This document shows, one piece after another, positions 11,961 through 13,629 of a stretch of DNA of 18,090 bases. Position numbers and translations under genes: made by a program. Within the stretch, counting starts at the first letter, position 1; each line of letters begins with the position of its first letter. Source of the DNA: a virus (lineage: Duplodnaviria > Heunggongvirae > Uroviricota > Caudoviricetes); the IMG/VR virus record IMGVR_UViG_2537562191_000051; one strand, given 5' to 3'. A model generated the notes under the pieces. It had not been told where the DNA came from and searched no databases. It saw nothing but the letters and a program-made list of their open reading frames with translations.

Positions 11961-13008
11961 GCGCCGGGATTTACCCCCTAACCTTTATATAAGAAACAAT
12001 GGATATTACTGCTACAGGGACCCAAGGACGGGTAAAGAGTTCGGATTAGGCCGAGACAGGAGGATAGCAATCACTGAAGCAATACAGGCCAATATTGAGT
12101 TGCTATCCGGGAACAGGCGTGAGTCACTGATAGACAGAATTAAAGGCGCTGACGCAATCACTCTTCATGCGTGGCTTGACCGATATGAAACAATCCTCAG
12201 CGAGAGGGGTATCAGGCCGAAAACTCTACTCGACTACGCCAGCAAAATCAGGGCAATCCGAAGAAAATTGCCGGACAAACCGCTCGCTGACATATCAACG
12301 AAAGAGGTGGCAGCAATGCTAAACACCTACGTAGCAGAAGGTAAAGCGGCTTCCGCAAAATTAATCAGGTCAACCCTTGTTGACGTTTTTCGTGAGGCAA
12401 TAGCCGAGGGGCATGTGGCTACGAATCCGGTAACAGCAACCCGCACAGCAAAATCAGAAGTAAGGCGTTCAAGACTGACAGCTAATGAATATGTCGCGAT
12501 TTACCATGCAGCCGAACCGCTCCCAATCTGGCTGAGGCTGGCAATGGATTTGGCTGTCGTTACAGGGCAGAGAGTAGGCGATTTATGCAGAATGAAATGG
12601 TCAGACATAAACGACAACCATCTTCACATTGAGCAGGGTAAAACAGGGGCTAAGCTCGCCATTCCGCTGACGCTAACGATTGACGCGCTCAATATCTCAT
12701 TGGCTGATACACTACAGAAATGCAGGGAGGCCAGCGGCAGTGAAACAATAATTGCATCAACGCATCACGAACCGCTTTCCCCGAAAACAGTATCTAAGTA
12801 TTTTACAAAGGCGAGAAATGCATCTGGACTCTCATTTGATGGAGACCCGCCAACATTCCATGAACTGCGCAGCCTGTCGGCGAGGCTATACCGGAATCAG
12901 ATTGGCGATAAGTTTGCTCAACGTCTTCTCGGGCATAAATCAGATTCAATGGCGGCGCGTTACAGGGACAGTCGCGGGCGGGAGTGGGACAAAATTGAAA
13001 TATCATAA
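11938..13008 (+). CDS. int: Tyrosine integrase Int (lambda family)
   Basis: 356 aa. N-terminus [55 protein letters not shown] is lambda-Int-like (arm-binding domain). C-terminal catalytic region (..[26 protein letters not shown]..) is conserved, with divergence in the core-binding region. Confidence 0.9.
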
Positions 13009-13629
13009 TGGTTTTATTTTGATTAATAATGACCAGCGCACATTAACATATTGATAATTAATGAAATTTTTAATATACAACTTCCATGTCATAAGTTGTT
13101 GCAGACTGACTGCGCGCATTCCGTTGTCAGTTTTCGTGGCGCTTCCGGTGTGGTAGATGACGTAACGCCCCATCCAGACCATTAAGTGCTGGGCATCGCC
13201 CTGATCGAAAAAAATCATATCGCCAGGCAGCGCCTGGTTTATGTCCTGGCCAATAAACTGGCTGTTGTACTGAATCAAATTAATCGCGGTCACGTAGGGG
13301 CCGGTTTTCCCGTTCCCCTGATTCCAGTTTTGCGCCAGTTGACGCTGTCCAGGTGTTAGCGTCATCTCTGGCGGCAAATACTGGCTAGAGAAACCGTTAC
13401 TTTTTAGCCATTTACTATCGTGAACTTTCAGCGTCTCGTTCGCCGCAAATCGCACCAGGCCCGCACAATCCTGCTGATACCAGCGTGGACTTGGCCCCTG
13501 GCGGAGCTGTTCTTGTGCAATGCGTACAAACCAGGCGCGAAACAGCCCGGATTGTTCGACATTCAGCATTTCGCTATGGGCAACAACACAACACAGCCAG
13601 CAAATCAGCGCCAGCAGCCCGTGCCTCAT
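13003..13629 (-). CDS. yfaT: YfaT-like protein (DUF1175 family as I recall); 3' end overlaps the prophage junction
   Basis: Conserved position downstream of yfaA, with an ATGA start/stop overlap. The ORF runs across the attL core, and its last ~30 codons are AT-rich and lie in the phage P' arm, ending 6 bp inside int. Confidence 0.65.
13078..13098. other. Prophage attL core: inverted core-type Int sites CAACTTC / TAAGTTG flanking the 7-bp overlap CATGTCA
   Basis: Lies ~70 bp beyond the int stop, after a stretch (13009..13075) that aligns with the lambda P' arm as I recall it (arm-type sites and IHF-like ATTGATAA). The 7+7+7 architecture mirrors the lambda core, but the overlap sequence differs. 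Confidence 0.55.

Follow-up and report, generated by a model that had tools for sequence, protein, structure and literature searches.

Beyond the stop codon of an integrase gene in an 18,090-nucleotide stretch of viral DNA (the window), two inverted half-sites of the lambda CAACTT type surround 7 bp that differ from the lambda overlap, and the reading frame that crosses them on the opposite strand is yfaT. The locus raises the question of whether this is the left attachment junction (attL) of a prophage and, if so, which integrase made it, what directed that integrase to yfaT, and whether yfaT survived the insertion.

The core reads CAACTTC-CATGTCA-TAAGTTG, as an initial annotation of the window had pointed out, and lies 69–70 bp beyond the int stop codon in window letters; the 69 bp between the stop codon and the core are 20% G+C. 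The pattern CAACTT-N9-AAGTTG occurred once in the window, with 0.06 occurrences expected from shuffled sequence at one mismatch or fewer. Because a 6-bp inverted repeat alone is weak proof, the junction was placed by comparison with other genomes. When window positions 12900–13700 were searched against 5,426 complete E. coli genomes, the whole stretch was matched in 176 of them. About 5,200 of the 5,426, which are prophage-free and include K-12, matched solely from query base 182 (window position 13081) rightward, and the matching DNA is annotated as yfaT and yfaA. As anticipated in the initial annotation, the unoccupied K-12 yfaT thus departs from the window sequence leftward of 13081. Positions 11900–13110, searched against phage records, returned HK022, mEp235, Gally and Stx1a-converting phages at 93–98% identity, and all of these matches ended at 13083. 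In a four-way alignment, the window read ATATACAACTT CCATGTCATAAGTTG, K-12 read GGGTGTCCTT CCATGTCATAAGTTG and the HK022 attP read ATATACAACTTATTCACCTAAAGGAT; the switch from phage to yfaT DNA therefore falls within CTTCCATGTCA, a block with a single copy in the window. We conclude with high confidence that window positions 13009–13098 are the attL (B-O-C′-P′) junction of an HK022-family lambdoid prophage, formed by Int-mediated site-specific recombination. The features of the locus are collected in Table 1.

Table 1. Features of the yfaT attachment locus, in window coordinates.
Feature	Position	Strand	Basis
xis (excisionase, 72 aa)	11742..11960	+	Pfam Exc PF07825, E = 3.6e-41; annotated excisionase in E2863 and O26 11368
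int, HK022-type heterobivalent tyrosine integrase, 356 aa	11938..13008	+	Pfam domains and catalytic residues
Divergent att-linked module (last 16 int codons, P′ arm and C′)	12960..13084	+	Mismatch break against Stx1a phage
Hybrid yfaT ORF, 208 aa from annotated ATG (183 native and 25 P′-arm-encoded residues)	13003..13629	-	Alignment with K-12 YfaT
Arm-type site P′3 (AAACCATTAT on minus strand), predicted	13005..13014	-	Alignment with lambda and HK022 attP; overlaps int stop codon
Arm-type site P′2 (AATCAAAAT), predicted	13016..13024	-	attP alignment
Arm-type site P′1 (GGTCATTAT), predicted	13026..13034	-	Identical to HK022 P′1 in the alignment
IHF H′ site (TATCAATATGTTA), predicted	13044..13056	-	Aligned with lambda H′ TATCAATTTGTTG
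Core-type Int site C′ (CAACTTC), phage-derived	13078..13084	+	6/7 positions as in HK022 and lambda C′ (CAACTTA)
11-bp identity block CTTCCATGTCA common to both prophage ends, attB and attP	13081..13091	+	Sequence comparison
7-bp overlap/crossover region CATGTCA (conventional orientation TGACATG)	13085..13091	+	Aligns with HK022 (TTCACCT) and lambda overlaps
Core-type Int site B (TAAGTTG), chromosomal, inside yfaT	13092..13098	+	Found in unoccupied K-12 yfaT
yfaA, upstream neighbour of yfaT	13626..15362	-	ORF list and RefSeq annotation

The other end of the prophage lies outside the window and was read in genome E2863 (NZ_AP018802.1), which was 100% identical to the window over 12900–13700 and 99.8–99.96% identical over the remaining window covered by the fetched locus. 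In E2863 a 3′ fragment of yfaT sits 16.9 kb to the left, and the DNA at this end reads ...GGGTGTCCTTC CATGTCA GAAGGAG (21-mer GTCCTTC-CATGTCA-GAAGGAG). Thus, CTTCCATGTCA forms a direct repeat on either side of the element. The 50-kb E2863 locus contained exactly two copies of the block, one at each prophage end, in direct orientation and 16,919 bp apart; none of 100 shuffles yielded two copies. The chromosomal B site TAAGTTG of the window is swapped at this end for the phage C site GAAGGAG, after which comes an HK022-like P arm whose sib hairpin, P1, H1 and P2 aligned block-wise to HK022 and lambda.

Joining the phage halves of the two ends predicted an attP core of CAACTTC CATGTCA GAAGGAG. 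This 21-mer was found uninterrupted in 12 IMG/VR viral contigs, flanked collinearly by int and the P arm. We rejected the idea that these contigs are free phages, since all 12 copies are relics inside an O157:H7 effector prophage, beside nleA and with a frameshifted, truncated int pseudogene. The relics confirm the sequence of attP but not its activity. Their P arm was 100% identical to that at the E2863 end. A sensitive blastn search of the INPHARED collection found no isolated phage carrying a CATGTCA attP, the best matches being HK022, Gally and mEp235 at about 78–80%.

CATGTCA was therefore present in the window attL, in the K-12 attB, at the other end in E2863 and in the contiguous attP. 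These comparisons bear out two expectations of the initial annotation, namely that attB, with an overlap matching that of attP, lies inside yfaT rather than at the target of lambda, and that attR carries the same 7 bp. Around the shared overlap, the half-sites CAACTTC, TAAGTTG, GTCCTTC and GAAGGAG are arranged as inverted core-type sites. In the conventional orientation, attP is CTCCTTC TGACATG GAAGTTG and attB is CAACTTA TGACATG GAAGGAC. The base immediately left of TGACATG is C in attP and A in attB; attL has the attB base and attR the attP base. This difference fixes the left edge of the exchange where alignment with the lambda and HK022 overlaps predicts it, and from these comparisons we infer the exact cleavage points within the core.

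The gene beside the junction encodes an HK022-type integrase. Its catalytic residues R212, K235, H308, R311, H333 and Y342 were all found, and Pfam identified arm-binding (PF09003), SAM-like/core-binding (PF02899/PF22022) and catalytic (PF00589) domains. The protein is 98% identical in amino acid sequence to HK022 Int, with 9 differences, and matches it at D99, P282, K283, K287 and R319 (5/5). These five residues are reported to separate HK022 from lambda specificity. The xis gene lies upstream of int and overlaps its start, as is usual for the excisionase of a lambda- or HK022-type site. Over int and the P′ arm, the nucleotide sequence was about 95% identical to that of HK022, compared with about 74% for lambda. 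The system is of the HK022 and not the lambda type; the lambda-like architecture described in the initial annotation was retained, whereas the alignment with lambda itself gave way to one with a closer relative.

The same annotation had recognized a lambda-like attL layout beside int, and a column-wise alignment with the lambda and HK022 attP sites agreed, predicting the three arm-type sites P′1 to P′3 and an IHF H′ site within the P′ arm. P′1 and H′ are intact, and H′ (TATCAATATGTTA) fits the IHF consensus WATCAANNNNTTR. In both P′2 and P′3, one base of the conserved GTCA/ATCA part is substituted: P′3 (AAACCATTAT) has a C in place of the T shared by lambda, HK022 and the O157 relic (AAATCATT), and P′2 (AATCAAAAT) has an A where these three have a G (AGTCAAAAT or GGTCAAAAT; HK022 has AGTCAAAAT). 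Given these substitutions, the present attL may bind Int poorly.

HK022 Int, with its attP and attB, acts at a torT–torS intergenic site. The HK022 attB at torT/torS, AACCTTT TTCACCT TAAGTGC, is intact and empty in E2863. In the window orientation, CATGTCA is identical to the HK022 overlap TTCACCT at only 1/7 positions. Compared quadrant by quadrant, the four core half-sites keep HK022-like central bases: AAAGGAT in HK022 corresponds to GAAGGAG in the yfaT system at C, TAAGTGC to TAAGTTG at B, CAACTTA to CAACTTC at C′, and AACCTTT to GTCCTTC at B′. The Int thus has the residues of the HK022 integration specificity group, but its attB is not that of the group (overlap AGGTGAA, torT/torS), the overlap being TGACATG and the site lying in yfaT. 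A Stx1a phage (LC744181) with nearly the same Int has the junction CAACTTA TTCACCT TAAGTGC flanked by torS, and this torT–torS location is the canonical HK022 site (PMC6814406). Because nearly the same Int serves phages at the torT/torS site, the target would be determined by the overlap and core sequences in attP, without a change in Int. Target choice thus appears to lie in the attP DNA and not in the protein.

According to one report, the 7-bp overlap used by HK022 Int may be arbitrary as long as it is the same in both partners, and the B and B′ sites reduce to a 5-bp requirement (PMC7736782). Taken together with the HK022-like half-sites and the differing overlap, this makes ordinary HK022-type recombination, retargeted by attP DNA, the most economical mechanism. 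In this mechanism, a phage attP of the form P′-CAACTTC-CATGTCA-GAAGGAG-P would have recombined with a 21-bp attB, GTCCTTC-CATGTCA-TAAGTTG, in yfaT, with strand exchange inside the 7-bp overlap CATGTCA. An HK022-type Int, presumably the one encoded in the window, would catalyse the insertion, while the overlap and core DNA of attP would direct the choice of yfaT. The insertion removes the last 24 codons of yfaT and places the prophage between yfaA-yfaT′ and yfaS-yfaQ-yfaP.

The HK022-type Int, together with the fact that matches to HK022-type phages stop at 13083, just short of the overlap, might also be accounted for if a canonical HK022-type phage (attP overlap AGGTGAA) had inserted at yfaT as a secondary, non-homologous site. 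Such an event should leave AGGTGAA at the other end, but in E2863 it is CATGTCA that is joined to the phage P arm, and an attP with CATGTCA is contiguous in 12 contigs. Moreover, the entire P′ and P arms have diverged from HK022, well beyond the core. We consider this explanation exceedingly improbable, and on the evidence of the E2863 end and the contiguous attP we rejected it.

The region of int and its att site is a mosaic. Relative to the Stx1a phage LC744181, the window had 0 mismatches in 1022 nt of int (11938–12959) and then 30 mismatches in 125 nt (12960–13084). The two Int proteins are identical over residues 1–355, and the window Int differs at residue 356 and lacks residue 357. Each of the 7 differences in codons 341–349 is at a third position; Int residues 341–355 are unchanged and identical to those of HK022, and the att module therefore comes from a diverged but functional HK022-like lineage. 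Over 12960–13084 the window is roughly equidistant from the O157 relic (25 mismatches) and HK022 (24 mismatches). This pattern makes it likely that resident lambdoid prophages recently exchanged the int body by homologous recombination.

The mosaic allows for a different history, in which a since-replaced integrase, for example of the type of the O157:H7 attP pseudogene, made the insertion, and homologous recombination with a torS-site prophage subsequently brought in the HK022-type int body. In that case, the pairing of Int and att seen today would be secondary and possibly non-functional. The sharp boundary at 12960 is what such a replacement would leave, and P′2 and P′3 depart from the HK022 sites. 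In addition, the contiguous attP copies adjoin only a different int allele, which has about 88% nucleotide identity, a divergent N-terminal region, and A283 and R287 in place of K283 and K287. However, since the att module itself encodes residues 341–355 as in HK022, with silent third-position changes, its original partner was also an HK022-like Int, at least C-terminally. The P′ arm of the window is not simply the O157 relic module, being no closer to the relic than to HK022, and in every quadrant the core half-site agrees with the HK022 pattern. Furthermore, at least 176 of the approximately 190 interrupted yfaT sites have the int junction of the window. We regard prior insertion by another integrase as possible but rather unlikely.

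Under the reading that we prefer, in which an HK022-type Int was redirected by attP DNA, a broader proposal can be made, although we put it forward only tentatively. One unchanged HK022-type integrase would have two natural targets, torT/torS and the yfaT coding sequence, dictated solely by the attP overlap and adjacent core bases. Together with the break at int codon 341, this would imply that lambdoid phages acquire new targets through exchange of a short att cassette, made up of the 3′ end of int, the P′ arm, the core and the P arm, and not by evolution of Int. Excision in near-complete prophages such as that of O26:H11 11368 could then reversibly switch yfaT and the downstream alpha-2-macroglobulin operon.

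The consequences of the insertion for yfaT were read from the hybrid gene. The minus-strand ORF extends from 13003 to 13656, with its RefSeq start at the ATG at 13629, and ends 6 bp inside int on the opposite strand, exactly as the initial annotation had stated. Its phage-derived part (13003–13080) is 20% G+C, compared with 54% in yfaT proper, and so consists of AT-rich phage-arm DNA as claimed, although it amounts to 25 codons and a stop rather than the roughly 30 estimated. Native YfaT has 207 aa, and the crossover falls in the codons for M-T-W-K (residues 180–183). In E2863 the native 24-residue tail is displaced to the far prophage end as a 90-bp pseudogene fragment. The replacement tail of 25 residues is encoded by the P′ arm on its reverse strand and has no similarity to the native protein after residue 183. 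In native YfaT the DUF1175 match runs to residue 205 (profile position 225/226, 195.9 bits), whereas the hybrid is matched only as far as residue 182 (profile position 202/226, 153.2 bits), a loss of 23 positions and 43 bits. In O26:H11 11368, a 1-nt difference in the T run of the P′ arm (T5/T4) shifts the frame and yields a different tail of 18 residues.

The initial annotation had left it open whether replacement of the native C-terminus disrupts yfaT or supplies a substitute 3′ end. For the latter, the hybrid ORF continues through 25 codons of phage DNA to a near-native length (208 aa versus 207 aa), and RefSeq annotates the product as an intact DUF1175 protein. The new tail is nevertheless unlike the native one, the DUF1175 match stops at the junction, and the tail is not conserved among strains, as the O26 version illustrates. 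Moreover, the tail-coding arm is a low-G+C sequence constrained by its Int and IHF sites. We therefore rejected replacement of the yfaT 3′ end and judge a functional substitute to be very unlikely. The missing C-terminal DUF1175 match and the strain-variable tail indicate that yfaT is disrupted rather than repaired, and by sequence comparison the new tail is an accident of the arm. Of the two outcomes named in the initial annotation, disruption is thus the one that stands. In the RefSeq annotation, yfaS-yfaQ-yfaP lie on the same strand as yfaA-yfaT′ and are separated from them by the prophage, so that a polar effect on yfaS-yfaQ-yfaP is plausible. HK022 is described as carrying an outward-directed promoter at its attL (PMC6814406). 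Recombination between the CTTCCATGTCA blocks would restore the K-12 yfaT sequence exactly, as described for regulated gene integrity.

Across genomes, the yfaT site was intact in 5199 of 5389; in about 190 it was split or altered, and 176 of these carry the int junction of the window. Among the occupied genomes listed are EHEC of serotypes O111:H8/NM, O26:H11 and O103. All 176 occupied genomes may trace back to a very small number of insertions. The O26 11368 element is a near-complete lambdoid prophage, about 50 kb long, with the same Int protein (WP_000533670.1). The window prophage, by comparison, is reduced to about 17 kb; this remnant includes nleA, nleG and IS1203 copies and has lost the immunity (repressor), N, cII, replication, recombination and morphogenesis/structural genes. 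Four hypothetical ORFs in the window had no match in Pfam and PADLOC scans. The window copy is most likely immobile, and its regulated excision is doubtful because the immunity and early regions are missing.

The attL is real and of a known type, and its yfaT target had already been catalogued. Two reports name yfaT among conserved E. coli genes disrupted by prophages (Bobay et al. 2013, PMC3603311) and among ‘regulated gene integrity’ candidates (Mageeney et al. 2020, PMC7192596), and the window is an instance of such a prophage-interrupted yfaT. In the full-text literature searched, the gene was listed by name only, and we found neither the anatomy of the att core nor a link of the site to HK022 Int. 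For a site known by gene name, the present analysis gives the base-pair anatomy, with attB GTCCTTC-CATGTCA-TAAGTTG in yfaT, and ties it to HK022 Int.

The yfaT system resembles HK022 in its Int, including the catalytic and five specificity residues, in xis, in the attP layout sib-P1-H1-P2-core-H′-P′1-3 and in the core half-sites. It differs in the overlap-adjacent base in all four half-sites, in an attB inside a coding sequence rather than an intergenic region, in the substituted P′2 and P′3, in an Int that ends ..EIS rather than ..EIDK, and in arms that are only about 75–85% identical. With lambda, which integrates between gal and bio, it shares the architecture, a common-core geometry resembling the 15-bp common core, and C′ at 6/7 positions. 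In contrast to lambda, however, its overlap is CATGTCA rather than TTTATAC, its C and B half-sites have the CCTT/ACTT typical of HK022 instead of GCTT, and its Int carries HK022-type specificity residues, with int and attP at about 74% nucleotide identity.

The site-affinity (saf) mutants of lambda are said to be a case of overlap-driven retargeting. In these mutants, as in the engineered HK022 attP/attB pairs with arbitrary overlaps described in PMC7736782, the same Int acts on a different overlap and the partners need matching overlaps. By this analogy, the window looks like a natural counterpart of such retargeting. Unlike the mutants and engineered pairs, the yfaT system belongs to a natural, fixed prophage lineage, and its arms have diverged as well. 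If Int is active on the yfaT sites, the locus would provide a natural example of redirection of HK022 Int by overlap change alone, which has so far been mainly engineered.

Phage 21 and e14, which integrate in icd, and the tRNA-targeting phages preserve the gene that they enter. The yfaT prophage resembles them in inserting near the 3′ end of a gene whose ORF then runs into phage DNA. In contrast to those phages, it restores no homologous 3′ end, and a segment of the conserved YfaT domain is lost. The yfaT junction marks the nleA/nleG effector prophage in EHEC O26, O111 and O103, and it predicts loss of YfaT function and possibly loss of expression of the downstream alpha-2-macroglobulin genes.

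At this prophage end a sharp recombination boundary lies at codon 341 of int, which was revealed by nucleotide comparison with the int gene of LC744181, an Stx1a phage integrated at the torS site. Left of the boundary (window positions 11938-12959) the two sequences are 100% identical, with mismatches at 0 of 1022 nt. Right of the boundary (12960-13084), 30 of 125 nt are mismatched, a divergence of 24%, and every coding difference within codons 341-349 falls in the third position.

Two of the arm-type sites, P'2 and P'3 (13005-13024), each contain one substitution within the conserved GTCA/ATCA portion, G to A in P'2 and T to C in P'3. 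Both substitutions are shared with the prophage copy at the same yfaT site in O26:H11 strain 11368 and are absent from lambda, HK022 and the relic of this attP type in O157:H7 genomes. The change in P'3 coincides with a different end of the Int protein, ..EIS* in place of ..EIDK*. The P'2 and P'3 substitutions might weaken binding of Int to the arm.

HK022 attL contains an outward-reading promoter that drives torS (PMC6814406). If the homologous P' arm here (13009-13077, plus strand, towards yfaT) retains such a promoter, the resulting transcript would be antisense to yfaT and yfaA.

An uninterrupted yfaT-type attP was identified in O157:H7 genomes (strain 2159, L020 6075-9055; also loci L005-L016), and yfaT is intact in these same genomes. 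The adjoining int is frameshifted and N-terminally truncated. This attP and int lie inside an effector prophage, with nleH1-2/nleF on one side and nleA on the other. The O157:H7 P arm, together with about 200 bp beyond it towards nleA, is 98-100% identical to the attR side of the near-identical genome E2863 (NZ_AP018802.1). nleA appears to travel linked to the yfaT-type P arm.

At the start of the window, nleG is associated with flanking copies of an insertion sequence. Window positions 623-1932 recur with 100% identity close to nleA at the E2863 locus (L004), where this second copy is inverted. The 17-kb remnant probably arose by IS-mediated deletion from a prophage of about 50 kb like that of O26 11368.

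Genes outside the attachment region of the window
Feature	Position	Strand	Context
nleG	1-534	-	IS1203 (IS3-family) copies on flanks (window 1-1932; E2863 L004 33778-37477)
ORF, 328 aa	8597-9583	+	nin region, between HNH endonuclease and ninE
ORF, 275 aa	9622-10449	+	nin region, between HNH endonuclease and ninE

Pfam and PADLOC scans of the two adjacent nin-region ORFs gave no match. The same slot in O26 11368 encodes a different protein, a 590-aa hypothetical. This position (8597-10449) may accommodate variable moron or defence genes.

Inspection of the blast alignment with E2863 also revealed a small indel or repeat-length difference at about 4857-4887, where the alignment breaks and resumes about 55 nt out of register. 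The alignment with O26 11368 is interrupted in a similar way. The break lies near an ORF (4616-5440) that RefSeq marks as frameshifted in E2863.
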